A DNA stretch of 55,191 bases, from contig JBBKWS010000014.1 of the NCBI GenBank assembly GCA_037969075.1, positions 1-55,191 of the forward strand. The letters run 5' to 3'. Origin of the DNA: Bdellovibrionales bacterium. GTDB lineage: Bacteria; Bdellovibrionota; Bdellovibrionia; Bdellovibrionales; UBA840. The notes beneath the pieces were generated by a model that saw only the letters and a program-made list of their open reading frames with translations, was not told the origin of the DNA and did no database searches. Made by a program: the position numbers and the translations under genes. Below, piece by piece: positions 1,660-52,028 of the stretch; the stretch's first letter is position 1, and each line of letters begins with the position of its first letter.

Positions 1660-3672
1660 TTACATAAAAAATGCTAGGTACCTACTCTTCGCACTATCAA
1701 TCTGCGATTGAATCGAAGCAAGCACTGATTCAAGCTCGGCCTTTGAACTATCAAATCCAGCTAGATCACTATTTATCTTAACGATCGCCTGTCCTACCGC
1801 AACTAACCTTGCTTCACTTGCTTTTAATGAATCATTTAGTTGAACTAACAGGATCTTATCTTTAGGTACTTGCACCTTTAAGTTTGAATCTTCAGAAACT
1901 AATCGGCTAAGTGCACTACTAGTGGATTGCAGCTGAGATCTTGCAACATTTAAGTTTTGTTCTAAACGACTAAACCCAACACTTTGATCAAATCGATTTA
2001 ATTCGTCGGCAAGACTTCTAATCTCTTGTCTTAAAGAGGCCGCTCGACTTTCTTGCGAAGACACATAAGCTCTTAGATCTAGGTTACGGTTTTGCAATCT
2101 AGGAATTTGGTACTCAGTAATGTCGCGGCGTTGACCTTCTGCTTGTTGCAATTCAGAATTAAGGTTTGTCAACCTCGCGCTTGCTCGGTCATACTCAGCT
2201 CTTAATTGATCTTCTTCTCTACCAACATCACGCGCTACGTCTTCTTCGATTTTCTCTACTTCTCTTTGCGCATTGTTGTACTGCCCTTGCAATCTGCTAA
2301 CCATACTCTTCTTAGTATTTACATCAGCCTCCAATCTATTTGTTTGCTCAGCTAGTTTACTACAATCATTTCCAGGCTTCGATTGGCATTGCGATAGTTG
2401 GGATCTGCTTCTAGTTAAATCCCTTTCTAGCGAACGAAGTTCTTCTCTCTCAGAATTTAATTGCGCACGCACCCGGTCCGCATCACTTTGTGCCGTACGG
2501 TAGCGACTAGACGACGCAAGTCTTCTTCTAGTTTCAGAGCGGCTGTCAAAACTTTCTAGATCTCTTCTGGCTCTATCATATTGCGATTGTAATGATGGAA
2601 GATCACTACGCAATCTTTGAATTCTACTATTTAATTGCTGCGCTTCTCGATCTAATTGATCCATCTGCCTTATATTATCACTAATCTCTCTTTGTGCTGA
2701 TGAGATCTCTCTTTCAGACTCTGCTAGATCAGATTGTGCAGAGCTCAAATCTCTAGATAATTGATTGTGCCTAGGTAAATGCGGGGCAATTTGTCTCTGT
2801 GCTTCATCGTACTTGGCTTGCGCTAGATCTTTTTGCTTTTGCGCATTAGGGATTTCTGTTTGCAACTGAGCAAGTCTTCTCTCTCCGCTCTCTATTCTTT
2901 GAGATGTAACTTGAATATTATTTTTTAATTCTGGAATTTTACGACCATTTAAATTCGCCTGCTCTACCCTAAGAGAATCTCTTTCTGTAATCTTAGGAAG
3001 ATTTTGCTCTACCAACTTTGCAAGACGTGCTTCATTTTGTAAAAGATTATTGTGATGCCCTGCTAACTCAAAGTAGATAGATCTTAAGCTGGAAATATGA
3101 GAAGGGTCGAATAATTTAGGAGCTGTATCAAACGCACTTGGATGGTTAGTAAGGGCACTAAATCTATCATCAACAAGTGATTTACCTGCATTACAATGTT
3201 TTTCCATAGAAGCTATGATTTGCGAAGCACCTTTTGGAGAGAAACTAATCTTTCCACCATCAAGATCTCCGTATGGTCTAACTTCAAAGGTTTTACTGCT
3301 TGTTTTTAAGGTGTCTAAAAACAACTTTGTTTCATCCGGTAAATACCAAAACATTTGATTTTTTGCTTCTATCGAAAGTTGATTAAATAGTACTACCTCG
3401 TTACCAATACTGGCCGCAGCCATTGGCCCATATTTAGGCTTTCCAGCTTCATTTAAGAAAATTTCTACTGGCTTACTAGAGTTTTTTTGTTTTTGGATTT
3501 GCAAAGTGTAGGTTCTAGAAAATCCTCTGTCCTCGGTAGAGGCAATACATACTGTTGAATCATTAGCAGTGACTTCATTTAAAATCCATTTATCCTTTTT
3601 TTCAATTTGACCCGCTAACGCTGGATTTACAGCTGCACTAAGAATGATTGTAGATAGTATGTAGCTTTTCAT
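1660..3672 (-). CDS. secreted long coiled-coil protein (670 aa), function unknown
   Basis: Signal peptide MKSYILSTIILSAAVNPALA|GQ, a globular N-terminal region of about 170 aa, then about 480 aa of Q/R/S/L/E/D-rich heptad-like sequence. SD aaaGGGGaatcATG. Confidence 0.75.
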   Translation of the reverse strand: MKSYILSTIILSAAVNPALAGQIEKKDKWILNEVTANDSTVCIASTEDRGFSRTYTLQIQKQKNSSKPVEIFLNEAGKPKYGPMAAASIGNEVVLFNQLSIEAKNQMFWYLPDETKLFLDTLKTSSKTFEVRPYGDLDGGKISFSPKGASQIIASMEKHCNAGKSLVDDRFSALTNHPSAFDTAPKLFDPSHISSLRSIYFELAGHHNNLLQNEARLAKLVEQNLPKITERDSLRVEQANLNGRKIPELKNNIQVTSQRIESGERRLAQLQTEIPNAQKQKDLAQAKYDEAQRQIAPHLPRHNQLSRDLSSAQSDLAESEREISSAQREISDNIRQMDQLDREAQQLNSRIQRLRSDLPSLQSQYDRARRDLESFDSRSETRRRLASSSRYRTAQSDADRVRAQLNSEREELRSLERDLTRSRSQLSQCQSKPGNDCSKLAEQTNRLEADVNTKKSMVSRLQGQYNNAQREVEKIEEDVARDVGREEDQLRAEYDRASARLTNLNSELQQAEGQRRDITEYQIPRLQNRNLDLRAYVSSQESRAASLRQEIRSLADELNRFDQSVGFSRLEQNLNVARSQLQSTSSALSRLVSEDSNLKVQVPKDKILLVQLNDSLKASEARLVAVGQAIVKINSDLAGFDSSKAELESVLASIQSQIDSAKSRYLAFFM

Positions 3673-10964: not shown

Positions 10965-11360
10965 TTACCCATTACCGCCCTTAGATTCTCTTTCATAAAC
11001 TTTCTGGCTTTGTGTAATCAGATCGACCTCTATAGGCTTAAATGTCTTTAACGTGTCAGCGTACATCTTTTTATTAGCTTTAAATAGAGGAGCCAGTAGC
11101 TCTGCCCCGTAGTTAGATTTATCATTTTGCAGTAAAAACAAATGCACCTTCATGATTTTTAACATCGTAGCTTTATCTACATTATTCCCGGCTTTTACAA
11201 TTCTTTCTAAGAGTAAATAACCTTCATCAACTGTATCAGAGCGAACTTCTTTTAGTTGGCTGACTGAAAATAAATACGTATCAAGAGTAACCTCGTGCTC
11301 TTGCGCATGAGAAAAACTAAGGCTACCTAGAACGAGGGCAAGTATAATTTGAGTTTTCAT
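10965..11360 (-). CDS. small secreted protein (131 aa), candidate partner or immunity protein of the upstream hydrolase
   Basis: Signal peptide MKTQIILALVLGSLSFSHA|QE. Strong SD AAGGAGtgaagaaaaATG lies inside the 3' end of the upstream gene (38-nt overlap). Confidence 0.7.
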   Translation of the reverse strand: MKTQIILALVLGSLSFSHAQEHEVTLDTYLFSVSQLKEVRSDTVDEGYLLLERIVKAGNNVDKATMLKIMKVHLFLLQNDKSNYGAELLAPLFKANKKMYADTLKTFKPIEVDLITQSQKVYERESKGGNG

Positions 11361-12489
11361 TTTTCTTCACTCCTTTTGTGTCTTTTACATATACACCGAT
11401 TAAAGTTCTACCTCTACCACTTAATCCATTACTAATACGACCTGTTCTAGATGATTCTGTATAATAATCACTTATAAATCCACCTTCACCTACATCACCT
11501 GATTTAATTTCAATATGACCATATTTTCCGCCATCATATACTAAGATAGCACCTTTTGGCGCATCATATGGGTTTCGAATCATCTTACCCCACTCGGGTT
11601 TATTTAATAAATTTGTGTAGCCCTCTCTTTTAAGCGCTGGCCCCGCCCCTTTAGCAGGAACACCATTTAAATAAGATGAACTCAGGTTACCACCCAACAG
11701 TGCATTCTTAACATATCGATAACAATAGCCTGTAGATCTGGGCCGAACATTTCTTTTTGCACATTGTATCATTGCATTCACTTCAGGGCTTTCACTATAG
11801 TCCTTGACCATCTTTTCATCTGTGCCCAGTTGTTCCGTAGAAACCACCTCTTCGATTTCATCATACATATCAATCAATTCAGATCTAAATGCACTATTAT
11901 CTTTACTACAATTAATACAACCAGCAGCTCCTTCTGTCTCATTTCCATCAATAGGATCTAAGCCATCCGAAATTGGCGGGTCCTTTTCGACATAAGTATA
12001 ATCTCTTAGCTCTTCTAAATAATCCCTGTAGACAAAAGCTTCTTTAACTTTACAACCCGGCATTTTTTCTACGTTTACTTTTAACCAATTGGGATTTTTA
12101 ACGGATGGGCCAATCACCGAAATAATATCACCTTGCTTTAAGTTACACTGAATCTTAGATTGACTGGATTCACTAGCTCTAACACGTAAACCATTCGGTG
12201 CATTGATTACCTGTGCCGTTTCAAACATCCCTAGTGGCTTAAACAGCGGACTGCCAAACACCCAACCCTCTGTGATTTTATTATCTTTACAACCTTTTAC
12301 CGTCGATAGATCTACACGGTACCAACCATCCTTTTTTTCCTTAATACTAAGTTCCGATGCATTGGGCGCAGAGCATAGTTTGGTGTTGGTAACACCGGCA
12401 CCGCTTCTTACATTTAATGAGCTAGCATTTACACGACCGTAGTCAGATGCATGGGACATTTGAAAGAAGAAAATGATTAGGTATAACAC
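11323..12489 (-). CDS. secreted 2x SH3b-domain protein with C-terminal papain-like (CHAP/NlpC-P60-type) Cys-His hydrolase domain
   Basis: Two SH3b-like repeats (LNVRSGAG...GWYRV and LRVRASES...NWLKV). The C-terminus has a candidate nucleophile in STGYCYRYVKNAL and a His in PKGAILVYDGGKYGHIEIK, the usual CHAP-type spacing. Confidence 0.6.
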   Translation of the reverse strand: MLYLIIFFFQMSHASDYGRVNASSLNVRSGAGVTNTKLCSAPNASELSIKEKKDGWYRVDLSTVKGCKDNKITEGWVFGSPLFKPLGMFETAQVINAPNGLRVRASESSQSKIQCNLKQGDIISVIGPSVKNPNWLKVNVEKMPGCKVKEAFVYRDYLEELRDYTYVEKDPPISDGLDPIDGNETEGAAGCINCSKDNSAFRSELIDMYDEIEEVVSTEQLGTDEKMVKDYSESPEVNAMIQCAKRNVRPRSTGYCYRYVKNALLGGNLSSSYLNGVPAKGAGPALKREGYTNLLNKPEWGKMIRNPYDAPKGAILVYDGGKYGHIEIKSGDVGEGGFISDYYTESSRTGRISNGLSGRGRTLIGVYVKDTKGVKKNENSNYTCPRSR

Positions 12490-12593: not shown

Positions 12594-13931
12594 CTAAATA
12601 ATCTCTACTTTATCGATTTCTAGTAATGATTTAGCCTCAACTAACTTGGACCTTGGTACTAATAACTGCATTTTATATATTGGCGAAATAAAAGCATAGA
12701 GTCTACGAAACTCGAAACCTTGAACAAGGCAATCTATATCCATAGAAATTAAATATTTTTTAATAACCGTCATATATTGAAAATTATCAAATTCCCCTAG
12801 CGTCGCCACATCACTATGCTTCCTGATAAACATAAAATGTTCTAAAATATCTTTTCCAATAAAATATAAAAGTAGTAAGTACGCTAAACTGATCCACTGT
12901 AGGGCCAAACGTCCATCAGATTCAAACGGCCTAGGCATCGATAATAAGAAAGAAACTACCACTACAATCAACAAATATTTCATTGAAGTAAAAAAATATG
13001 TTTTTTCAGAAAGTGAATTCATACTTATAGTAACATTGTTTTTTAATCTTTTAGAACTATAAGCCAGCCAGTATGAAAACAGACTTACCACTAAAAATAG
13101 TAGTGTAAATACGATGGTATACATCCAATCCGGCGGCATATACTTAGCCCAAGAACTCTCCGGCCATAACATGGGCGGAAGCAAAACTAAGTTGTAAGAC
13201 CAAATAATGGCAAAAACGCCTTGGGCTACTGGCGGTACATCATACAAAAGTCTTTTATTTTTAAAAGTAATGTCCGTCATAGCCTTGGGTTTAAATACAA
13301 AATAATATAATATCCAGATAAATAGAAAAAAGAAAATTATCCCTGGAAAATAAAAATTCGCGCTATCATTAATAAAATACTTCACATCATTGAATATAGT
13401 TTTTCCCGTATATATAATTATATCAAAAACAACCAGAACGCCAAATCCATTCGCTAGCCCGCGCTTTGTCATCCAATAGCCTAGAATAAATAAAGTTACT
13501 GCACCTGTGAAAAAAAATAGATAAATAAGTGGGATCACAAGACTTGAAGTAAACATAGAACCATGATCTTGAGCCGGGCTTATTGCAAAGTTTTGCAGTT
13601 CACTGTAAATTGTAACCAAGATCAGTACCGCACTTAAAACTAAGGCTAAAATATTGATTTTGTCCCTTCCATTGCGTCCCGTCTTTCGCCACTTAGAAAC
13701 CGGAGGAAGCACAAAAGATAGTAACTCACTAAAAAAGAACCCCATAATCACTGGCCCCAAACCTAAGCCAAAGAAACTAAAACGATTTGCCTCTAATACA
13801 GGAGACAATCTAATGAATTGGTACATAGAATCTGATAAAAATGGCACATGAATATGATTACCTAAAATATATAAAAAAATACCAATGAAGCTAACCAGTA
13901 AGGCTTTATAATGTGACTGCAGTTGGCTCAT
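12594..13931 (-). CDS. divergent SecY-like polytopic membrane protein with C-terminal DUF2007-like soluble domain (445 aa)
   Basis: By-eye collinear similarity to E. coli SecY (recalled from memory): SFFGLGLGPVIMGFFFSELLSFVLPPVSKWRKTGRNGRDKIN vs [42 protein letters not shown], and TGAVTLFILGYWMTKRGLANGFGVLVVF vs [27 protein letters not shown]. It lacks the GIRPG loop, and the last ~70 aa resemble DUF2007. Confidence 0.55.
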   Translation of the reverse strand: MSQLQSHYKALLVSFIGIFLYILGNHIHVPFLSDSMYQFIRLSPVLEANRFSFFGLGLGPVIMGFFFSELLSFVLPPVSKWRKTGRNGRDKINILALVLSAVLILVTIYSELQNFAISPAQDHGSMFTSSLVIPLIYLFFFTGAVTLFILGYWMTKRGLANGFGVLVVFDIIIYTGKTIFNDVKYFINDSANFYFPGIIFFFLFIWILYYFVFKPKAMTDITFKNKRLLYDVPPVAQGVFAIIWSYNLVLLPPMLWPESSWAKYMPPDWMYTIVFTLLFLVVSLFSYWLAYSSKRLKNNVTISMNSLSEKTYFFTSMKYLLIVVVVSFLLSMPRPFESDGRLALQWISLAYLLLLYFIGKDILEHFMFIRKHSDVATLGEFDNFQYMTVIKKYLISMDIDCLVQGFEFRRLYAFISPIYKMQLLVPRSKLVEAKSLLEIDKVEII

Positions 13932-13955
13932 ACAATAAGGCTAGTATATCGCCTC

Positions 13956-13984
13956 TTGCATAACAACAAAAATATCAATACTAT
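13956..13984 (+). promoter_or_regulatory. sigma-70-type promoter giving a probable leaderless rnhA transcript
   Basis: TTGCAT-N17-TACTAT, followed by only 5 nt (aaatc) before the ATG at 13990. No SD. Confidence 0.4.
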
Positions 13985-13989
13985 AAATC

Positions 13990-14448
13990 ATGAAGTTCAA
14001 ATCTCTTAACTTTATAAAAAAAAGTGCAGCTATAGATATATACACTGACGGCAGTGTAAAGAATAATACTGCGACTTGGGCTTATATTGTTACGTTCAAC
14101 GGTAAAATCATAAAAAAAGACTACGGGAAACTAAATATTGTCGATTGTAACTACGCCGAATTCACAGCTGTGATCAAAGCCATAGAGACAATAACAAAAC
14201 CCAGTCGGATAAACATTCATACGGATTCAAGAGTGGTTGTTGATACCATGAGTCTTTGGGCTTCCGATTGGAATCAACAGGGATGGCTTAAGAAAAATAA
14301 GCGACCCATTCCTTTTGTTGAAACCATCAAACAATTATATTTTTTGAGCCTAAATCATAAAATACAATGGCAATGGGTAAAGTCACATTCTGGAGACCGA
14401 TTCAATGAAGATTGTGACCACCTCTGCAACATTGCGCACTCTATCTAA
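13990..14448 (+). CDS. rnhA: ribonuclease HI
   Basis: IYTDGS...TWAYIV, HTDSRVVVDTM..W...W...GW, and WQWVKSHSGDRFNEDCDHL match the RNase H DEDD architecture. 152 aa. Confidence 0.85.
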   Translation: MKFKSLNFIKKSAAIDIYTDGSVKNNTATWAYIVTFNGKIIKKDYGKLNIVDCNYAEFTAVIKAIETITKPSRINIHTDSRVVVDTMSLWASDWNQQGWLKKNKRPIPFVETIKQLYFLSLNHKIQWQWVKSHSGDRFNEDCDHLCNIAHSI

Positions 14449-15509
14449 TCAAATAAAGATCCGCATGTTTTCTTTTTAAAGATGTCCATCGTATTTATCT
14501 TTACACCTAAACTATTTTTTATGTCGTAATAAAAGTATGCCAAAAACCCTGTGATGCCAACTGTTGTAACAATAACCTGACTCGAAAACTGACCTGCCCA
14601 AAAGCCAGGGTTGACAAAAGACATTACAAAATCAATTCCATTGATCAGACGGCTTTGTGACTTAGGAGTAATTACACTACCTTGTCTCTCGGACCGTAAC
14701 TTTTCCCAACGGCTCGCTGCCATTTTCCAAGAAGATAAAAACATTGTAACAACTGTAGCAAGATAGGCCGATTTAATGTATAATTCAGAGGATGAAAACG
14801 CTTCCACATAGGATTGAAAATCAGCCCCTGTCATACCTAAAAAAGGAACTAACATAGAGAAGTTCATTGCGTAGTTAATCAAAAAATTAGTAGCGCCTTC
14901 TATCCCCGACAATCGCTTTGAACTCATGCTAGGATTTTGTTTTTTAGCTATAGATGTTGTTTTTGACATCAATGAACTTACAAAATCGACTCCTGGCATG
15001 TGACCATTGCGCTTGGGAATATATAGGACTTCCATCATAATATAATTTAAAATTCCTGCATACGCTGCAATAGCTAAACTACTACCCGTTCCAACAAATA
15101 ACCCTGAACCGAGACCTACACACCTAATAATTAAAAGTGTGCGCAATCCATTCTGTTCATTGGCACTTACTCTATCTACCTCGGGAGGCAAGAGCTCATT
15201 GAGCTTGTTTTCTTCAAAAACTCTAATTGAAATATTTCTTTCTGTTGCGCTTGCAGAGATGACATCACGGATCCCCATAGAGGCTGAATCATAGGTAAGC
15301 GTTAACTGCGGACTCTTCTCTCGTTTTAAAACCTCATTAATCGCTTGAGCCAGCATATTTTTAGGCATGCTATGTTGCTCAATTTCTATGTCATAGTTAC
15401 CTATAGCATTCTTAAGCGTAATTGTATTAGACCTGATGATCTCATTCGGGGCGGCAGCTAGAGCTGAAAATAGTAAATATATTAAAAGCATATCCATTGG
15501 GGTATCCAT
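14445..15509 (-). CDS. hypothetical membrane protein (354 aa)
   Basis: Intact ORF with N-terminal signal/anchor and several hydrophobic segments (LLIIRCVGLGSGLFVGTGSSLAIAAYAGIL, VVTMFLSSW, VIVTTVGITGFLAYFYY). No family recognised. Confidence 0.6.
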   Translation of the reverse strand: MDTPMDMLLIYLLFSALAAAPNEIIRSNTITLKNAIGNYDIEIEQHSMPKNMLAQAINEVLKREKSPQLTLTYDSASMGIRDVISASATERNISIRVFEENKLNELLPPEVDRVSANEQNGLRTLLIIRCVGLGSGLFVGTGSSLAIAAYAGILNYIMMEVLYIPKRNGHMPGVDFVSSLMSKTTSIAKKQNPSMSSKRLSGIEGATNFLINYAMNFSMLVPFLGMTGADFQSYVEAFSSSELYIKSAYLATVVTMFLSSWKMAASRWEKLRSERQGSVITPKSQSRLINGIDFVMSFVNPGFWAGQFSSQVIVTTVGITGFLAYFYYDIKNSLGVKINTMDIFKKKTCGSLFD

Positions 15510-19777: not shown

Positions 19778-20995
19778 TTAAAAAACTGTACCATCACTAT
19801 CAATTAAAATTGGGGGACCACCATCTTGTCTTTTATCTTTTGCCAAAAATCTTCCTGCCCACCAAGTTCCGCCTTCTAATACTTTTGCTAAAGGAAAATC
19901 TTCTGGATTTTTATTTAAAGCCTTTTGCACTTCAGTACCAATTTTATCTAGCAGGTAAACTGTAAGCGATCGCCACTCTATAATTAAATTCGATGATGGA
20001 GTCCAAGACTCTAGCTGCTCTTTTGGATCTTTAAAGCTCAAAAGGCCAGAATCAATAAACAGACCACCATTTCTGTATTCAGCCAGACCTGTTAAGCCCT
20101 CTACGCCTACGACCTTTACTCCAGCTTCTTCGATTGGTTCAATCAATGAGTATGTCATCCACTGAGATAATTTATGTAGAGGAACTAAAGACGACATTCC
20201 CGTTCCAAGTGGCAAATACTCCCAAACATCTCCTAAATTAATTCCGTTCGACTTTATACGGCCAGGCCAAATGGGACCCAATCCATCCAACACCGCTCTA
20301 AGAATAGCAGTCGCAGGGATCTTATCTCCATGAGTCTCAATTAAATAATCAATGATATTTCCGGGTCTTCCATCTTTAAAAATAATTTTATTACTAACAG
20401 CATCACCTAAGTTATTTAACAACTTAACACGTCCATCAACACCGATTAGAGGATTTGTAGGACTCACCTGAAAACACGCCTCAATGTCCTTAGCCGTGAT
20501 ACTTTTTAAACCTTGACCGTCAGCAAGTATTTCTTTGCCACTTCCACTCATTTTTTTTGATAAGAACAAATAGTAACTAGCAACTCCCAAGCCTTCAGAC
20601 CGAGAAAATACTTTACCCGTAGATTCTTCCGCATACCTCCAATCAGGCCCGGCTCCTGCATCAAGCAGTACTGATGTAATTACTAGATCCAACTTTGCTC
20701 TAGCTTTTTCTAATTTATCAGCACTAAGCAATTGATTTAAATCCTTTACTCTATCAACTCCCCCGACTTTAAAATGTCCCCAGCGTGAGTGAAAAGGAAT
20801 ATTAAGGTCAGGATAATTCTTATGAATTACTGTAAGCACATAATCTAAGGTCGATTGAAACTTATCTGCATGATAGGTGAAGTGGGTCTGGCCCTTAGTG
20901 GTCAAATCAAAAATTTTCTTTGCCCTATCTCTGATGGCTTCGGGCGATAGAATAAAATCTAAATCTTTCTGGCTTAAATCTATATTATTCTTCAA
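19778..20995 (-). CDS. URC4/DUF1688-family protein
   Basis: About 405 aa with IPFHSRWGHFKVGGVDR, which I recognise as the DUF1688 (yeast URC4/urg3) signature. TTG start with SD AAAGGGG. Overlaps the upstream gene by 11 nt. Confidence 0.6.
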   Translation of the reverse strand: MKNNIDLSQKDLDFILSPEAIRDRAKKIFDLTTKGQTHFTYHADKFQSTLDYVLTVIHKNYPDLNIPFHSRWGHFKVGGVDRVKDLNQLLSADKLEKARAKLDLVITSVLLDAGAGPDWRYAEESTGKVFSRSEGLGVASYYLFLSKKMSGSGKEILADGQGLKSITAKDIEACFQVSPTNPLIGVDGRVKLLNNLGDAVSNKIIFKDGRPGNIIDYLIETHGDKIPATAILRAVLDGLGPIWPGRIKSNGINLGDVWEYLPLGTGMSSLVPLHKLSQWMTYSLIEPIEEAGVKVVGVEGLTGLAEYRNGGLFIDSGLLSFKDPKEQLESWTPSSNLIIEWRSLTVYLLDKIGTEVQKALNKNPEDFPLAKVLEGGTWWAGRFLAKDKRQDGGPPILIDSDGTVF

Positions 20996-22241
20996 TGGAG
21001 CGCCCCTTTACTTTCTTTAAATCATCTAATGATTTCGTGGCCTCTTTTGAAAAATAGCCAGCCGCTTTTTTAGCTTCCATCTCTACTTGAGCATCTTGTG
21101 GAATCAATTCATCAGGAATTGAAATGCGGTTAACAACTTCTATTCCACTTCCTACAATGGCATCGTATTTCATGTTACTCATTGAATGAAGATTGTGAAT
21201 TTTTTTAATTCCAAAAAAATGCAATGGATCAGGCATCAATTCTTGAAATCTGGCATCCTCTACACCTGCAACACACTCGGTTCTGTGAAAATATGTTGCT
21301 GCCGTATCTCCACCCTCTTGTCGCTTTCTAGCGTTATAAACTAAAAACTTTGTAACCTCTCCCAATGCACGCCCTTCCTTACGGTAGTATATAATAATTC
21401 CAACCCCGCCTCTTTGAGCAGTTCTAGCTGCGTCTTCAATCCCGTACATCAAATAAGGTCTACACGTACAAATATCTGAGCCAAACACATCTGAACCATT
21501 ACATTCATCGTGTACTCTGCAAGTAAGTTCAATATCAGGATTAGCTAAATCTTGTACATCACCGAATATATAAGCGGTTGTACTTCCGATGGGAGGCAGG
21601 CAAACTTTTAAATCAGGCCTGGTAATCAACTCCGGAAACATTCCACCTGTTTCTTCAAACAATATTCTTCTTAAATTTCCTTCATCCGTTTTTAATCTTT
21701 CTGCAATACCGGGTAAATACCATACTGGATCAAGAGCAACCTTAGTAACTTTAATGTCTCCGGTACTTTTAATAATTTTTCCGTCAGGCTTTAGTCGCCC
21801 TTTTTGTATGGCCTCCATAATTTCAGGAATCTGTAAGTGTGCTTGAGTTACAGCTATACTTGGCCTAATATCATACCCTTTTTGAAATAATGGTTTGAAG
21901 TTTTGCTCTGGATCTAATCCCCATGGGTCAATAGCTACCATCTTTGTTGGATCAAACCATTGCGGATGAGGTCCAATTTTTACTGGGCTTTGTGTATTCT
22001 CTAAATCTGGCTTATGCTCCTTAGAAAACTTACCGCTTGCAATGGATAGCGCACGGTAAACAGTATAACTCCCTCCGTGGGTTCCTATGGCATTTCTTGC
22101 TTTAGAGTTAGCAATAGAGGCCACAACAGGACCTCTTTTTATTGGGTCTTTTGCTCCCCACTCGATAGGTAACATTTCTTTATAACGTAAATTTGAGTGC
22201 GACGCTAAAATAATATGGTTTGATCTTTTATTAAATTCCAT
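20985..22241 (-). CDS. URC1-like GTP cyclohydrolase II family protein
   Basis: CRVHDECNGSDVFGSDICTCRPYL corresponds to the RibA zinc-binding C-x10-C-x-C block. The ~418-aa length with a long N-terminal extension is typical of URC1-type rather than RibA proteins. Confidence 0.7.
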   Translation of the reverse strand: MEFNKRSNHIILASHSNLRYKEMLPIEWGAKDPIKRGPVVASIANSKARNAIGTHGGSYTVYRALSIASGKFSKEHKPDLENTQSPVKIGPHPQWFDPTKMVAIDPWGLDPEQNFKPLFQKGYDIRPSIAVTQAHLQIPEIMEAIQKGRLKPDGKIIKSTGDIKVTKVALDPVWYLPGIAERLKTDEGNLRRILFEETGGMFPELITRPDLKVCLPPIGSTTAYIFGDVQDLANPDIELTCRVHDECNGSDVFGSDICTCRPYLMYGIEDAARTAQRGGVGIIIYYRKEGRALGEVTKFLVYNARKRQEGGDTAATYFHRTECVAGVEDARFQELMPDPLHFFGIKKIHNLHSMSNMKYDAIVGSGIEVVNRISIPDELIPQDAQVEMEAKKAAGYFSKEATKSLDDLKKVKGRSIEE

Positions 22242-22257
22242 TTTTATCCTCTTCCAG

Positions 22258-23739
22258 TTACGACATCCAATTAGAATCGCTTTGTGGCTCCCACTTAACT
22301 GTTACTTTTTTCATATTTGTCCAAAAATCTAAACTGTGCTTACCCGTAATATCTCCGTGCCCAAACTTAGAATCATTTACTCCACCAAACGAAAACGGCT
22401 CTCTTGGCACTGGCACACCAACATTAACCCCGACCATTCCGGTCGTGGCCTCATGTGCTACACGCTCTGCCAAGGCTCCGTTAGATGTAAACACACTACA
22501 CGCGTTACCATACTCACTAGTGTTTTCTATATGAATTGCTTCAGACAAATCCTTACACTGAATGATACTTAAGATAGGACCAAAAAGCTCATGGGTTGCA
22601 GCTTCGCTCCCAGGCTTTACATGCTCGATCACTGTAGGTCCTAACCAATTACCGCCAGAAAAATCATTAGGTGCCTTTGCCTTTCGACCATCTAATAAGA
22701 TTTTTGCCCCAGCCTTTTCGGCACGATCAATGGCAGCTTTCAAAAACTCCACTTGGTCTTTAGATATGATTGCACCCATATTTTTACCGAACTCTAATGA
22801 TGAAGCTCTTTCAATAATTTTTTTAATATGAGTATCTACATTGCCTACGGCTAAAAGCACAGATGCCGCCATACATCTTTGGCCCGCACAACCTGTGAAT
22901 GAATCCGAGATTCCTACTCCACTTAATTCTGGGTTAGCATCAGGAAGTAGTATGATGTGATTTTTTGCTCCACCTAATGCCAATACTCTTTTACCAAGAT
23001 TCGTGCCCCGTTGGTATACAAGTTTTGCAACTTTAGTGGAGCCCACAAAGCCAATCGCTTTTACTAGTGAGTGATCGATGATTGCTTCAACCGTTGAAGC
23101 ACCACCTTGAAGCACTGTAAGTACTCCGTCTGGCAGACCTGCTTCTTGAAATGCGTTGGCAATCTTAAGAGATGTTAATGGTGTTTTTTCAGACGGCTTC
23201 CACACATAGCTGTTACCTAAAGCGATGGCTATAGGTATGGTCCACATAGGCACCATGGCAGGAAAATTAAACGGCGTTATATTTGCGACCACTCCCAGTG
23301 GCTCTCTTCGATATTCGCAGCTAACACCACGAGAAACCTCTACTTTGCCATTTAAATCAAGATTTTGAATGGATATTGCATATTCTAAAACCTCAATTCC
23401 TTTTAATAGTCCAGCTTTGGCTTCATCAAACGTCTTTCCGCACTCGCTACTTTTTAAATGAGTAATTTCATCAATATCTCTTAGAAGAATATTTCGAAAA
23501 TTAAATAATACCTTACTTCTTTCTTTAATGGATACTTTGGCCCAAGAGAGTTGCGCGAGCCTGGCTTCTCTGATCGCAAGGTCGATTTGCTCTTTAGATG
23601 GTATACTATACTGACCAATTCGACCCTGTGAGTAAGGTGAAACTACGTCGGCTGTACCCTGCGTACCCGGCACCCATTTACCTGCTATAAAGTTATGACA
23701 ACGAATCAAATCTGTTGGTAATTTTGTATGCATTTTCAC
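22258..23739 (-). CDS. mmsA: CoA-acylating (methyl)malonate-semialdehyde dehydrogenase
   Basis: ITPFNFPAMVPMW, LGGAKNH and AGQRCMA are hallmark MMSDH variants of the ALDH motifs. 493 aa. Confidence 0.85.
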   Translation of the reverse strand: MKMHTKLPTDLIRCHNFIAGKWVPGTQGTADVVSPYSQGRIGQYSIPSKEQIDLAIREARLAQLSWAKVSIKERSKVLFNFRNILLRDIDEITHLKSSECGKTFDEAKAGLLKGIEVLEYAISIQNLDLNGKVEVSRGVSCEYRREPLGVVANITPFNFPAMVPMWTIPIAIALGNSYVWKPSEKTPLTSLKIANAFQEAGLPDGVLTVLQGGASTVEAIIDHSLVKAIGFVGSTKVAKLVYQRGTNLGKRVLALGGAKNHIILLPDANPELSGVGISDSFTGCAGQRCMAASVLLAVGNVDTHIKKIIERASSLEFGKNMGAIISKDQVEFLKAAIDRAEKAGAKILLDGRKAKAPNDFSGGNWLGPTVIEHVKPGSEAATHELFGPILSIIQCKDLSEAIHIENTSEYGNACSVFTSNGALAERVAHEATTGMVGVNVGVPVPREPFSFGGVNDSKFGHGDITGKHSLDFWTNMKKVTVKWEPQSDSNWMS

Positions 23740-30086: not shown

Positions 30087-30387
30087 TATTCACCTCTATT
30101 AGTTCAAATAATATGTCTTTGTATACTATGAACTGAACAAACTGACTCGAGCTTATTGTCACTTCTGTAATAATTCTACCTACTGTAAAGACCTTAGACA
30201 CAGACCAAAACAATGAAAAAACTTTACGACTTCATTAGTTATTAAAATCTAATACCAAAGCCGGACTTATAGTAGAGCCTATTATGAAGTGATTTCAGGC
30301 TTTTACAGGTAATTATTCTACTCTGTATTGCTGGCAGGCGACTATATAGCTATATTCCTACATCTTTATAAGAATGGGACATTGGGG

Positions 30388-33300
30388 ATGAACTTGCGCA
30401 GTCTATTTATATACGTACTTGTATTTCAATTAATCGTAACAAGCGGTTTGCAGTTTTTTACTCCTACAACAGCCTATGCTGACGACAGCATAATTGAACA
30501 GACTCAGTTTACTACTGAAGAATTAAAAAATAGCGAACCTCTATTTAAGCACTTATACGAAACCCTGTTGGGTGGGCACGAAGCTAACCCTCTAGACACA
30601 TTCTCACTACTGCGCCAAGACTTTCACAAAGATAATACGACTGTCACAAGCATTAGCCCCAGAGGCGTGATGTTTGAAGTAATTAACGAACAGAGCCAGG
30701 TTAAGCAGTTTCGAGCTAGCGAAAGTTTAAGCTCAAACTTTGACGCAAAAATAACTTCTGAAAACACTGGCTTCATCTTATATATAGAAGGAAAGCCTGT
30801 ACATACATTCAGAGTCCCTGTTGAGTCCCTAGCAGTCGTCGGAAACTTTATAGTTTTCATCGAACACAATTCTTATAACGCTCAAGAAAACTTACGGCAT
30901 TTATCATTTATTGATCTTAATTATTTTCATCTATCGAAATCAGAATTACCAATTTTTAAAGTACCCATTCATGGGCAGCAAACAATAAATTCTGTAGTTA
31001 CAGGCAGAGATAGTTTAATTATTAATGATACTAAATACGAGTCCGGACTTTTTGAATTTGCAGCAAGTATGCAAAGAATTATATTTAATGTACTAGTTAA
31101 CACAACAAGCCCTGAGCATCTGACTAGGCTAATGAACTATATAGAACCCTATATAGATTATTTTGCAGCTAACCTAGAGGTAGCAAAAAAGGGTTCTAAT
31201 TCTGAAACTCAAATTTCTCAAATGCAAATAGCTTATGATCAACAACTAAGAGCCTTAAAAGAGAGACAGCAAAAAGGGGAAGATGTATCTGAAGGAACTC
31301 TAAAATTACTGGGCGATAGCTTCTGGGAACCACTCTCAAAGTCCATGCAAAGTGCTAATGAAAACCTACAAGCGCAGCGCGGACTTGTTGGACGACTTGG
31401 AATGTTATGGCAAAGATTAAGTGTCCCAAGACCTGCTGAGGTCTCTAGTTTAAAAGCCAAAATAGTACAACTAGCTGTAGGAATTTATAAACGCACTATA
31501 AAAAAAGCTGACCTTTATGAAGTTGCCCTTGAATTAGCGACAAACAAAAAAGTAAGGTATTCTGCAGCTACATTAAGTGCCTCTGCCTTCGCCTATTATA
31601 TGCCTGAAGCCTCACTACATGCGGTATTAAGTTTAGTAGAAATGGGTAGAGTTCTAACTGAATCTGCTGTCGCCAAAGGAAGTGAGTTCGCAAACATAGG
31701 TTGGGAGACCACAAAAGCAACCTTCAGCGGAATTAGTCCTATTAAATTATATGAAACTTACATAGCAGATGGCGCTTGGCAGCGGACGTCTATCGGTGTT
31801 AGCTCAATGTTTACAATTTTAACCATTGTTGTCGGAATACCGCATATCTTGGTAAACTCATATTACCTAGTTAAAGACTTCAGAAATTCACCAAGTCTAG
31901 ACTGGCAAAAAGGGCGACCTGGCGAACTACTTGGCTTCTTACTTACATTTAAACACTTTAGTATTACTGAAAATAGTAAGGACTTAAAAGCATATAAAGA
32001 TAATGTGCTGGCAAAAATAATTCCTAATTTTATTAAGAGGCAACAAGATATACAATCCGCATATATAAATGCATTGTCTGATGAAAAAAAATCTGCAACC
32101 GCAAGCACTGATGCGCAAGACATAGAAACTGAAAATCGTCTGGCACAGGAGTTTATTGATAGTTTTGAAAAAGAGCGGCAAGGTCGTAAAACCATGTTGA
32201 ACCGCCTAACTAACTCAAGAATCTGGAATGTGTTAAATGACTATGTAGATATAAACCTACCTCAAGTAAAGCATGGGATATATTCTACCCAAGCGGCAAT
32301 GAGTCGTTTTAAGAATATAGAAAATTTTGCCGGAGCAATGTCGCATTTTTTATTTTCATTTGCTGCTTTTACTAAATCAGGTGTCTTTTATACAACCTCA
32401 TGGAACTACTTCTTTTTATTAAGAGCACTTGTGTTTAAACCAAAATTGGCAGTTACCTTTTTGTTTTTTCCTAATTACTTCCGAAGATCCGTGGCCACTG
32501 ACCTAGGAAAAATAACACCCCCTAGTTTTTGGAATGGTGGGACGCGTTGGATCTGGCAAGAGATTTCTCAGCACTTTGATCGAACCAAGGATAAGGAATA
32601 CTTTGAGCAAGCAAGAATATTTGAATCTGAAGTTGTAGAGGTAGAAAAAACGGCGAACGCTGAAGCCCTAAAAGAGGCTTACAAAGCTTTGCAACGTTAT
32701 CTAAAGTATAAAAGTAGTGATGTAATAAAACTATCTGAACAAAAAGAAAAGCTAACTAGCAATGCATTTAAGGATTTATCCTATGATGCTAAAAGCCTAT
32801 TCACAGTTTATTATGATAAATTAATCGAAGTCTCTATGAGTGTATACTTAAGGCGTGTAGCAGAAGCTGGCAGTGACACCTCAATAACCTCTACACAGGC
32901 CGACATTAAAAACTGGTTTATACACGAAAAAATTAGTCCTCAATCAACCACCATTGATATCAAAGAGATCGTTCGAGACCTTGCGTCTGACCCTAAATTG
33001 TATGAGCAAGCGATTGAGGTGGTAAACAGAAGTAATCACTTTATAGAAAAGCAAGTAAGTCGTGAGAAGCATCGAACCTATTGGAATCTTGATCCCTCAC
33101 ACAGTGGACAGTTTAGCAGATTCGTGAACGCTGAAAAGCAGATGAAAAAGCCCAGTGCAATGGCCAGAGCTGTTAGAGCTAATATTGTAGGGTTAATTGT
33201 TGATAAGCCCATGGAGCTTGCTCTGCTATTCTTACTGGTCGCGGGAATTACTGATGGACCAAATAAACCTCTTTGGGACACTATGTTTAGCCAAGATTCT

Positions 33301-34053
33301 GCATTTTACTTATCAAGAAACGTTTTTATGGGGTATATTGCCGGTCTCATAACAAGCATATTTGCTGATGTTTGGGTTAAGGTTCAAAGAGATGTCAGGT
33401 TAGATAGTTTAGGCGGATTTGATCAAATCCCCAAAGGGGAAATGGCTGAAAAGCCGTTTAGAACATGGTATTGGCATGTATTTAGGACTGACAAAAACAA
33501 TAAATGGTTTGATCAACATAAAAATGATTCAAAATTAATTTATCATAATATGGGCCCGGCCTTTGTATTAATGACGGTGATTGGTATGACCACCTTAGGG
33601 CGAGTCGATATAGATTTTTATACACTAGGGTATATCACCGCCTTCTTTTTACCATTTACTGGCCTAAGTGCAAAGATCGAACAAACATTCGATATTGCTA
33701 GTGGTTGGGTACTTAGACATGTCCCCAAAAACTTACACAGCAATCCACTTATTATAAAGTGGGCCAATAAAGAAATCACCAGGCTTCGTATGAGCTTTCA
33801 AGTTTACAATAAACTTTATGAGAATATATTGGGACAATTTCTAGGAAACCTGATGGCCCTAACAACAACTATGAGTGGAACAAGGGCATTGAGTAGAATT
33901 TTATTTGGAGGAAAGACTGTCACTGAGCGCTTAATTGAAACAACTACAGCGGCAGCTGAACATATCCCTGGTGCTAAGTTTTTTGATAATGCTTGTAGGG
34001 TTTTATTTACAAATAATTATAACTCTGGAAAATTGCCACCAGCTCCTAAGTAA
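30388..34053 (+). CDS. very large polytopic membrane protein of unknown function (~1221 aa)
   Basis: Uninterrupted ORF. The likely start is MNLRSLFIYVLVFQLIVTSGLQFFTPTTAYA|DD (signal peptide); the ORF-track start at 30328 is a TTG. About 400 aa of soluble N-terminal region are followed by at least 10 hydrophobic segments separated by charged helical regions. No motif recognised. Confidence 0.7.
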   Translation: MNLRSLFIYVLVFQLIVTSGLQFFTPTTAYADDSIIEQTQFTTEELKNSEPLFKHLYETLLGGHEANPLDTFSLLRQDFHKDNTTVTSISPRGVMFEVINEQSQVKQFRASESLSSNFDAKITSENTGFILYIEGKPVHTFRVPVESLAVVGNFIVFIEHNSYNAQENLRHLSFIDLNYFHLSKSELPIFKVPIHGQQTINSVVTGRDSLIINDTKYESGLFEFAASMQRIIFNVLVNTTSPEHLTRLMNYIEPYIDYFAANLEVAKKGSNSETQISQMQIAYDQQLRALKERQQKGEDVSEGTLKLLGDSFWEPLSKSMQSANENLQAQRGLVGRLGMLWQRLSVPRPAEVSSLKAKIVQLAVGIYKRTIKKADLYEVALELATNKKVRYSAATLSASAFAYYMPEASLHAVLSLVEMGRVLTESAVAKGSEFANIGWETTKATFSGISPIKLYETYIADGAWQRTSIGVSSMFTILTIVVGIPHILVNSYYLVKDFRNSPSLDWQKGRPGELLGFLLTFKHFSITENSKDLKAYKDNVLAKIIPNFIKRQQDIQSAYINALSDEKKSATASTDAQDIETENRLAQEFIDSFEKERQGRKTMLNRLTNSRIWNVLNDYVDINLPQVKHGIYSTQAAMSRFKNIENFAGAMSHFLFSFAAFTKSGVFYTTSWNYFFLLRALVFKPKLAVTFLFFPNYFRRSVATDLGKITPPSFWNGGTRWIWQEISQHFDRTKDKEYFEQARIFESEVVEVEKTANAEALKEAYKALQRYLKYKSSDVIKLSEQKEKLTSNAFKDLSYDAKSLFTVYYDKLIEVSMSVYLRRVAEAGSDTSITSTQADIKNWFIHEKISPQSTTIDIKEIVRDLASDPKLYEQAIEVVNRSNHFIEKQVSREKHRTYWNLDPSHSGQFSRFVNAEKQMKKPSAMARAVRANIVGLIVDKPMELALLFLLVAGITDGPNKPLWDTMFSQDSAFYLSRNVFMGYIAGLITSIFADVWVKVQRDVRLDSLGGFDQIPKGEMAEKPFRTWYWHVFRTDKNNKWFDQHKNDSKLIYHNMGPAFVLMTVIGMTTLGRVDIDFYTLGYITAFFLPFTGLSAKIEQTFDIASGWVLRHVPKNLHSNPLIIKWANKEITRLRMSFQVYNKLYENILGQFLGNLMALTTTMSGTRALSRILFGGKTVTERLIETTTAAAEHIPGAKFFDNACRVLFTNNYNSGKLPPAPK

Positions 34054-51272: not shown

Positions 51273-52028
51273 CTAACAGATTGTTAAAATCCTGGCACCT
51301 TCATCAGTGATGAGCACTGTATGTTCAAACTGCGCGGTTAAGCTGCTGTCCCCTGTAGTGTACCATTTAATACTAGAATCAGAGATATCATGTTCTAAAA
51401 TGGGCACGTCCGTTTCGTTAATCATTGGCTCTACAGTAATACATGTCCACTTTTTTAATATATCCCCCTTACCTTTTTTTCCATGAGATGGCACAAATGG
51501 GTCCTGATGAAAAGCCGTACCTATACCGTGTCCACCTATCTCGTGAACGACATAATAGCCCCGACGAGTAACGTATTTATTAATGGCAAAACCTATGTCC
51601 CCTGTGGTTGCCCCAGTTTTTACTTCAGCAATTCCTTTTAGCATGGCCTTTTCGGCGCAATCAGTAATGTCTTTTGCTTTATCACTTACATTGCCAATAA
51701 AATATGTACGAGAAGTATCACCATAAAAACCGTTATAAATAACAGTGACATCTAAATTCATGATGTCTCCATCTTTTAAAACCGTTTTATCAGGGACACC
51801 GTGGCATATAATTTCGTTTACAGAAGTACACACTGATTTAGGAAAGCCATGATAATTTAAAGGAGCAGGAATCGCTCCACGAGAGAGTATGTAATCATGT
51901 ACAATTTTATCGATTTCGTTAGTACTTATGCCAGCCTTTATATACGGCTGGGCAAATTTTAAAGTTTCTGCCGCCATCTTACCTGCGACTTCCATTCCTC
52001 TGATGTGATTAGCAATTTCTGGTGTCAT
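51273..52028 (-). CDS. map: type I methionine aminopeptidase
   Basis: Pita-bread metal ligands in context: LDVTVIYNGFYGDTSRT, HEIGGHGIG, ITVEPM and FEHTVLIT. Confidence 0.9.
   Translation of the reverse strand: MTPEIANHIRGMEVAGKMAAETLKFAQPYIKAGISTNEIDKIVHDYILSRGAIPAPLNYHGFPKSVCTSVNEIICHGVPDKTVLKDGDIMNLDVTVIYNGFYGDTSRTYFIGNVSDKAKDITDCAEKAMLKGIAEVKTGATTGDIGFAINKYVTRRGYYVVHEIGGHGIGTAFHQDPFVPSHGKKGKGDILKKWTCITVEPMINETDVPILEHDISDSSIKWYTTGDSSLTAQFEHTVLITDEGARILTIC

Follow-up and report, generated by a model that had tools for sequence, protein, structure and literature searches.

In this analysis, we sought to determine what kind of protein is encoded by a SecY-like gene in a Bdellovibrionales bacterium, and whether that protein acts as the cell's housekeeping translocon, as an accessory channel, or as no channel at all. 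The gene is an open reading frame (ORF) in which a SecY-like domain is fused to a DUF2007-type tail, and it lies on the minus strand, at 12594..13931, of contig JBBKWS010000014.1 (assembly GCA_037969075.1); the window analysed is this entire contig, 55 kb in length. SecY is among the few universal, essential membrane machines, and to our knowledge SecY2, which works with its own SecA2, is the only characterised bacterial SecY paralogue. We conclude that the protein encoded here is very likely, to judge from its sequence, a remodelled accessory SecY.

The initial annotation had proposed the likeness to SecY from paired segments, and profile and structural matches, together covering all ten transmembrane segments (TMs), support it. 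The window protein matches the Pfam model PF00344 over residues 52-295 at 59.5 bits (gathering score 32.2; E=4.5e-16), as do 71 of 71 aligned members of the family described below. E. coli SecY is retrieved from the PDB by a single-sequence phmmer search (E=2e-5), and a profile of the family covers residues 18-430 of that protein, all ten TMs included, at E=1.8e-51; identity by BLAST is only ~29% over 119 aa. The initially proposed pairings for TM1, the TM2-C1 loop, TM5 and TM7 agree with hidden Markov model (HMM) and MAFFT alignments. Kyte-Doolittle analysis finds ten hydrophobic segments within residues 1-361, and an AlphaFold2 (AF2) model built from the 71-sequence family alignment contains ten TM helices, with a predicted local distance difference test (pLDDT) of 91.7 and a predicted template-modelling score (pTM) of 0.90; an earlier run on a 3-sequence alignment gave a pLDDT of 51 and an unusable channel part. 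Foldseek comparison of the model with the PDB returns 33 matches at E<=0.001, every one to SecY or Sec61 (best E=3e-11; TM-score 0.66-0.73) and headed by substrate-engaged SecA-SecY complexes and SecYEG structures. Hydrophobicity, model and Foldseek agree on a ten-TM fold of two pseudo-symmetric five-helix halves. Because the Pfam threshold is passed, yet the equivalog model TIGR00967 is matched at only 52.5 bits against a cutoff of 253.6, the protein is, judged by these scores, a real but very diverged SecY homologue.

The gene was at first regarded as an orphan, a view that does not survive a wider search. A word-indexed protein search found two relatives, one at 65% identity in a Logan assembly and one at 44% in a Bdellovibrionales metagenome-assembled genome, and an exhaustive HMMER search with a three-sequence profile of 1.84 billion cluster representatives (50% identity) gave 968 matches at E<=1e-3, of which 183 reach E<=1e-10. 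Of the 150 best, almost all align over the full query, tail included; the tail is recognised by an ad hoc HMM in 141 of 160 fetched proteins, the remainder being mostly fragments, and at least 130 representative clusters have the SecY-plus-tail architecture. The window protein, which shares ~20-30% identity with the 71-member alignment, is almost certainly a member of this SecY-DUF2007 family. Named members come from more than one phylum (Bdellovibrionales, Acidobacteriota and Syntrophales) and are annotated as 'hypothetical protein', 'putative signal transducing protein' or, misleadingly, with the generic 'preprotein translocase subunit SecY'. Neither Pfam nor NCBIfam holds a dedicated model for the family. 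Literature searches on SecY paralogues and homologues, SecY-like proteins and DUF2007 turned up no account of the SecY-plus-DUF2007 architecture, only work on Gram-positive SecA2/SecY2, chloroplast SecY and the evolution of SecY and YidC. What is new here, then, is a new domain architecture within the SecY superfamily in which a defining docking element has been lost. A plasmid collection, queried with the window protein and with P0039, a central member of the family, yielded no relatives, and neither did viral contigs when searched by means of a subfamily profile.

Positions of E. coli SecY were transferred to the window protein by alignment to establish what the channel has kept. The SecY-type channel domain (aa 1-371; 12819..13931, minus strand), delimited by hydrophobicity, profile, AF2 and Foldseek, comprises the ten TMs and a short plug region at aa ~32-52. 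Like the housekeeping SecYs of E. coli, Thermus and Geobacillus SecYEG, it combines a ten-TM pseudo-symmetric fold with a hydrophobic pore ring on TM2b, TM5, TM7 and TM10 and a beta-hairpin in the TM6-7 loop. The ring equivalents L58, I62, F163, V167, I243 and L354 (E. coli I82, I86, I187, I191, I278 and I408) are all hydrophobic, and across the family five of the six positions are. Also kept are the SecY-shared residues G85, G88, R89, G158, N161, G162, P241 and D361, and with them the GxxGR motif of the TM2-3 loop, the GxxNG turn motif between TM4 and TM5, just ahead of TM5, the proline in TM7 and the aspartate that ends TM10. The most conserved stretch of the channel is aa 53-92 (13656..13775, minus strand), which scores 0.54-0.55 against 0.2-0.4 elsewhere and, together with the tail, makes up the most conserved parts of the protein. 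It consists of TM2b and the cytoplasmic TM2-TM3 loop, and holds E69 and R82 beside the SecY-shared G85, G88 and R89. By sequence and alignment, E69 (codon 13725..13727, minus strand) is a glutamate specific to the family; it lies where TM2b ends on the cytoplasmic side, in the position of E. coli Q93. It is Glu in 128 of 131 family members, and the position in tail-less comparison sequences is Q in five of seven, which are all five of the clearly canonical SecYs; in P0158 and P0159, both divergent, it is D and R. R82 is likewise family-specific and near-invariant (126 of 131 members), as is the Phe at pore-ring position 163, which is Ile187 in E. coli.

The deficit of the channel relative to E. 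coli SecY is ~60-70 aa, spread over the plug region, the C4 hairpin, the TM7-8 loop and the C5 loop, so the original estimate of ~65 aa was roughly right: the channel ends near aa 371, compared with ~430-436 in E. coli. The plug region is ~14 aa shorter, with short helices predicted by AF2 at 34-42 and 48-51. The C4 beta-hairpin, on the cytoplasmic side between TM6 and TM7 (aa 214-236; 13224..13292, minus strand; AF2 strands 218-223 and 226-231, pLDDT ~98), is ~10 aa shorter, and the TM7-8 loop ~9 aa. The cytoplasmic C5 loop between TM8 and TM9 (aa 292-305; 13017..13058, minus strand) is also shortened and lacks the GIRPG/R357 docking motif; the absence of GIRPG was noted from the outset. In the alignment, the five GIRPG residues are deleted relative to E. 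coli SecY, which reads PGIRPGE there, and the motif G[IVLM][RK]PG occurs in 0 of 71 family members; it is present in two of five canonical SecYs fetched and in E. coli SecY. The C5 loop (R357 in E. coli) is central to SecA-driven translocation and to ribosome docking.

In place of these elements, the family carries an additional domain. The C-terminal 74 residues of the window protein (aa 372-445; 12597..12818, minus strand), delimited by Pfam matches of family members, a tail HMM and AF2, form a cytoplasmic alpha/beta domain of DUF2007 type that is separated from the TM10 helix (349-371) by a linker of 3 residues. Pfam gives no match at E<=10 to the tail of the window protein, even when the tail is submitted alone (88 and 128 aa); the ad hoc tail HMM scores the window ORF at 97.8 bits. 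Because 43 of the 71 family members match PF09413 (best E 1.4e-8), the tail is by sequence a DUF2007 domain at the level of the family, the window copy being too diverged to score. The earlier label of a DUF2007-like tail is upheld through the family by these matches, while in this protein taken alone the likeness is not detectable by Pfam; the tail itself is modelled confidently by AF2. The model places a strand at 375-381, a helix at 384-396, a strand at 402-404, a short helix at 406-412, a strand at 421-426 and a helix at 427-437 (pLDDT 87-98), and the same secondary structure appears in the shallow 3-sequence model, as expected of a small alpha/beta domain that folds independently. The arrangement, as modelled, is ferredoxin-like, and the conserved hydrophobic C-terminal residue of the family likely represents its last strand. 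Compared with PDB sequences, the tail profile gives only chance-level matches to RNA-recognition motifs (E ~1).

The tail resembles stand-alone DUF2007 (PF09413, 'putative prokaryotic signal transducing protein') in its size of ~65-70 aa and its beta-alpha-beta-beta-alpha topology, and differs from it in being fused to the end of TM10 and in carrying the family motif DNxH, an invariant R409 and K420. In the window protein the conserved motifs are FDN (381-383), GFEFRRLY (405-412) and KMQLLVP (420-426), and the near-invariant, family-specific residues are D382-N383, R409 and K420. R409 (codon 12705..12707, minus strand), in the beta2-beta3 segment, is Arg in 71 of 71 family members. We take DUF2007 to be assigned to the GlnB-like clan.

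Is this, then, a working gene, and is it the cell's housekeeping secY? The ORF occupies 12594-13931 on the minus strand, as first annotated, with 445 intact codons and a stop codon. An orthologue at a second locus, L002, is of equal length, collinear and 65% identical, with local synteny kept, and the ratio of non-synonymous to synonymous substitution rates (dN/dS) between the two is ~0.15 in channel and tail alike, with dS close to saturation. Because dN/dS is ~0.15 in both parts, the gene is, by this measure, functional in its own lineage and under purifying selection. The full set of family-invariant residues is present in the protein.

The housekeeping assignment fares poorly. Besides the window protein itself, the tested family members score 31-202 bits against TIGR00967, those of the window's clade 40-57, and all fall below 253.6; two canonical SecYs included as controls score 380 and 420. 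The gene does not lie in the rplO-secY-adk/map order of the spc operon. Its flanks are instead a divergent RNase H gene (13990-14448, plus strand; Pfam RNase_H) and a gene for an SH3_3 protein, in keeping with the initial placement beside rnhA and away from spc. Where flanks could be used, at ~14 related loci, neighbouring genes have nothing in common from one locus to the next and are never ribosomal-protein, adk or map genes, and a comparison of 17 family loci shows no conserved operon or partner gene. A second SecY-like ORF was not found within the window. A Peptidase_M24 gene at 51273-52028 (minus strand), encoding a methionine-aminopeptidase-like protein of 251 aa, has no adjoining secY or adk; map is therefore not linked to secY in this stretch.

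Family genes have also decayed repeatedly. Family loci were also retrieved by a metagenome scan with a subfamily alignment of 21 sequences. The fusion gene of L009 carries a frameshift, those of L020 and L021 are split, and in L004, L019, L022 and L006-8 only TM9/10 and the tail remain, with no N-terminal part within the fetched flanks. These last are short, intact ORFs (L019 5812-6297; L022 5890-6300; L006 5924-6307, and likewise L007 and L008; L004 5980-6225) that are truncated at different profile positions (290, 314, 325 and 385). The remnant of L006-8 adjoins an IS200-type Y1 transposase, lies upstream of tamA/tamB and was found in three places from three different samples. Such ORFs are probably remnants, although they may be functional membrane-anchored mini-proteins. 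A two-gene version of the family, with the SecY-like part and the tail encoded by separate, consecutive genes, was considered and rejected: the apparent split in L009 is due to the frameshift in its fusion gene, and in L004 the tail is preceded by an unrelated gene. Because several copies are truncated or frameshifted, and a sole essential SecY could not decay in this way, these loci suggest that the family gene is a dispensable paralogue in some lineages. The scores against the curated thresholds, the genomic surroundings and the recurrent truncations and frameshifts together make it highly probable that the window protein is an accessory paralogue.

Two other explanations for the locus can be set against that conclusion. 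The protein could be the organism's only SecY, a fast-evolving yet essential housekeeping translocon; no canonical secY was seen, the sequence covered being this one 55-kb contig, and some symbionts and predators carry divergent core genes. We regard this as very improbable given the 52.5 bits scored against a cutoff of 253.6 where canonical controls reach 380-420, the location outside an spc operon at every locus examined, the truncated and frameshifted genes in other genomes, the loss of a universally conserved docking loop, and the patchy distribution of the family across phyla that possess a canonical SecY. Less credible still is the idea that the gene is decaying here or has arisen through faulty annotation: other loci of the family are clearly decayed, but here the 445-codon ORF is intact, an equal-length orthologue is collinear with it in conserved synteny, dN/dS is low and no family-invariant residue is missing.

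On the accessory reading, the nearest precedent is SecY2 of the Gram-positive SecA2-SecY2 (aSec) system, also a second, diverged, non-essential SecY that coexists with the housekeeping channel. Membership of SecY2 was rejected. The window protein does not match TIGR02920 or NF009082, the family reaches <=97 bits against cutoffs of 249.6 and 353, and canonical SecYs outscore the family on the SecY2 models. No genes for secA2, asp1-3, glycosyltransferases or serine-rich adhesins are linked at the family loci compared. SecY2 lacks a DUF2007 tail, and the hosts here are diderm phyla.

The family is itself diverse. A large subfamily has an N-terminal four-cysteine zinc ribbon (CPNPxCPH...CSDCG) ~50 aa ahead of TM1; its members include P0074, P0079, P0098, P0102, P0103, P0111, P0112, P0126, P0131 and P0134, and the frameshifted L009 (3807-5359). 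In P0027 and P0107, a B-box-like zinc finger takes the place of the ribbon. The zinc-ribbon subfamily is the least diverged from canonical SecY (160-202 bits against TIGR00967), and in a rough neighbour-joining tree, which carries no support values, it lies nearest the canonical SecYs, with the window protein in a deep, highly diverged clade. P0159 and P0160 are tail-less, very diverged SecY-like proteins of 425-459 aa, 25% identical to E. coli SecY, that nest inside the family in this tree; they could be another class of SecY paralogue or a long-branch artefact.

Two members with a further fusion bear on whether the accessory protein still conducts polypeptides. P0152 (828 aa; locus L023 337-2823) and the N-terminally truncated P0096 have the order TM, SecDF P1 head, TM, SecY-like domain, DUF2007, with the head assigned to SecD by Pfam PF22599 (E=8e-20) and TIGR01129 (3.8e-21). 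The topology is consistent, as it would put the P1 head in the periplasm and the N-terminus of the SecY part in the cytoplasm. The P1 head of SecDF is the periplasmic element with which the canonical Sec machinery catches the emerging substrate. The window protein lacks this module, and the fusions lack the 12-TM proton-conducting body of SecDF. A triple fusion of SecD head, SecY-like domain and DUF2007 appears not to have been described before. It is hard to explain unless polypeptides emerge into the periplasm, and the fusions therefore tie the family to protein export. The initial suggestion of a specialised or regulated export channel gains support from them as far as export is concerned.

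Taken together, these observations lead us to favour, by a modest degree, an accessory and probably non-essential SecY-type protein-conducting channel in which the tail would serve as a docking or gating module. In this model, polypeptides would still be conducted across or into the inner membrane, probably by the channel paired with the housekeeping SecE, and the canonical docking of SecA or ribosomes would no longer be used. The DUF2007 tail, rigidly attached on the cytoplasmic face, would replace the docking surface formed by the C5 loop and the C-terminal tail of SecY, and the N-terminal zinc ribbon may add to docking or gating in other subfamilies. The channel would thereby be restricted to a particular partner, condition or subset of substrates. 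Several observations weigh against this proposal. The pore-ring position in TM7 is frequently Ser or Thr in the family, and the plug region is short and poorly conserved (0.25), so that a sealed, gated pore is not assured. No linked secA2, secE, secG or substrate genes point to a dedicated pathway, and the frameshifts that speak for dispensability, coming from metagenome assemblies, could be sequencing or assembly errors. Sequence covariation gives a weak hint of coupling between the tail and the channel's cytoplasmic side. In a crude analysis of mutual information with average product correction, the channel positions in the top tail-channel pairs belong to C4, C5 or the cytoplasmic ends of TM3, TM5, TM7 and TM8, and never to periplasmic loops, but one subfamily split dominates the signal, which may reflect phylogeny alone.

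The main rival to a conducting channel is that this SecY derivative no longer translocates polypeptides and serves instead as a scaffold, a decoy or a regulator, which would, for example, titrate SecE, SecG or YidC or anchor DUF2007 at the membrane. It would account for the loss of the SecA and ribosome docking elements, the poor conservation of the plug and periplasmic loops and the lack of linked export genes, and the intact TM9-TM10-plus-tail ORFs that persist in several genomes could mean that a membrane-anchored tail is the functional unit. We nevertheless consider it distinctly unlikely. Purifying selection extends along the whole channel (dN/dS ~0.15), the hydrophobic pore ring and canonical turn motifs have been kept across divergence to ~20% identity, only polypeptides emerging on the periplasmic side would make sense of the fusions to a SecD P1 head, and the differing truncation points of the short ORFs fit decay and not a defined mini-protein. 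Another possibility, by analogy with GlnK plugging AmtB, is an auto-inhibited or ligand-gated channel, in which the beta2-beta3 segment of a PII/GlnB-type DUF2007 domain (R409 and a hydrophobic LYxFxxP) would plug the funnel or latch onto TM2b at E69/R82 until a metabolite or partner frees the domain and the channel opens. Here the analogy is to a small ferredoxin-like domain with a conserved Arg in its beta2-beta3 segment, sited at the cytoplasmic mouth of a channel, a placement that is predicted in our case; there is no homology to AmtB, and the DUF2007 domain is fused and not separate. Consistent with such a mechanism, the family-specific charged residues, which have no counterpart in canonical SecY, lie at the cytoplasmic end of the lateral-gate helix (E69 and R82) and in the beta2-beta3 segment of the tail (R409), conservation is highest in the tail and the TM2b/C1 loop, a linker of just 3 residues goes with a high pTM, the predicted order of secondary structure fits a ferredoxin-like fold, and tail positions co-vary with positions on the cytoplasmic face. 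We hold it to be unlikely all the same, as no solved structure is matched in sequence by the profile of the tail, we identified no ligand-binding motif, and the covariation may, as said, be phylogenetic.

A bolder reading, which we offer tentatively and consider unlikely to hold, is that the family represents a third class of bacterial Sec translocon beside SecYEG and SecA2/SecY2. Such a translocon would be independent of SecA and ribosomes, with its entrance controlled by the fused PII-like DUF2007 domain and R409 latching E69/R82; export or insertion would be switched by a metabolite or partner, with periplasmic pulling in the members that carry a SecD head.

The SecY-like and RNase H genes share a divergent intergenic region of 58 bp (13932..13989), which presumably contains the promoter. 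A sigma-70-like TTAAGA-18-TATAGT (minus strand, 14009..13980) is weak evidence for this, as such sites are no more numerous than in shuffled sequence; the scan for promoters and terminators as a whole gave no excess over shuffled sequence. On the same strand, 104 nt downstream of the SecY-like ORF, lies the gene for the 388-aa SH3_3 protein (11323-12489, minus strand; Pfam SH3_3), which has a hydrophobic N-terminus; this arrangement is kept only in the close relative L002. This protein was initially described as a secreted wall hydrolase, which is partly supported: it has the SH3_3 domain, and its C-terminal region (aa 243-322) matches PDB 4hz9_A (E=6e-5), presumably a Tae4-type peptidoglycan amidase effector. 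A 354-aa membrane protein without a Pfam match is encoded on the far side of the RNase H gene, at 14445-15509 (minus strand), and occupies the same position in L002 (100-1152), giving a local block of unknown protein, RNase H, SecY-like protein and SH3 protein. Elsewhere, two large ORFs have no Pfam match at E<=1e-5 (30328-34053, plus strand, 1241 aa; 1660-3672, minus strand, 670 aa), and a same-strand cluster at 19778-23739 (minus strand), which may form a small operon of metabolic genes, encodes DUF1688, an aldehyde dehydrogenase and a fusion of GTP_CH_N with GTP cyclohydrolase II. An Rfam scan of the window gave no match.

Altogether, this analysis describes a broad, multi-phylum family of diderm bacteria in which the SecY pore has been kept, the canonical docking loop dropped and a fused cytoplasmic domain gained. 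If our interpretation is correct, nature would have rebuilt the Sec channel scaffold to be engaged or regulated in a different way, and the family would constitute a natural experiment that separates the elements of SecY needed for conduction from those needed for docking. It would also point to a possible function for the uncharacterised DUF2007 domain, and to a candidate route of specialised secretion in predatory (Bdellovibrionota) and environmental bacteria.

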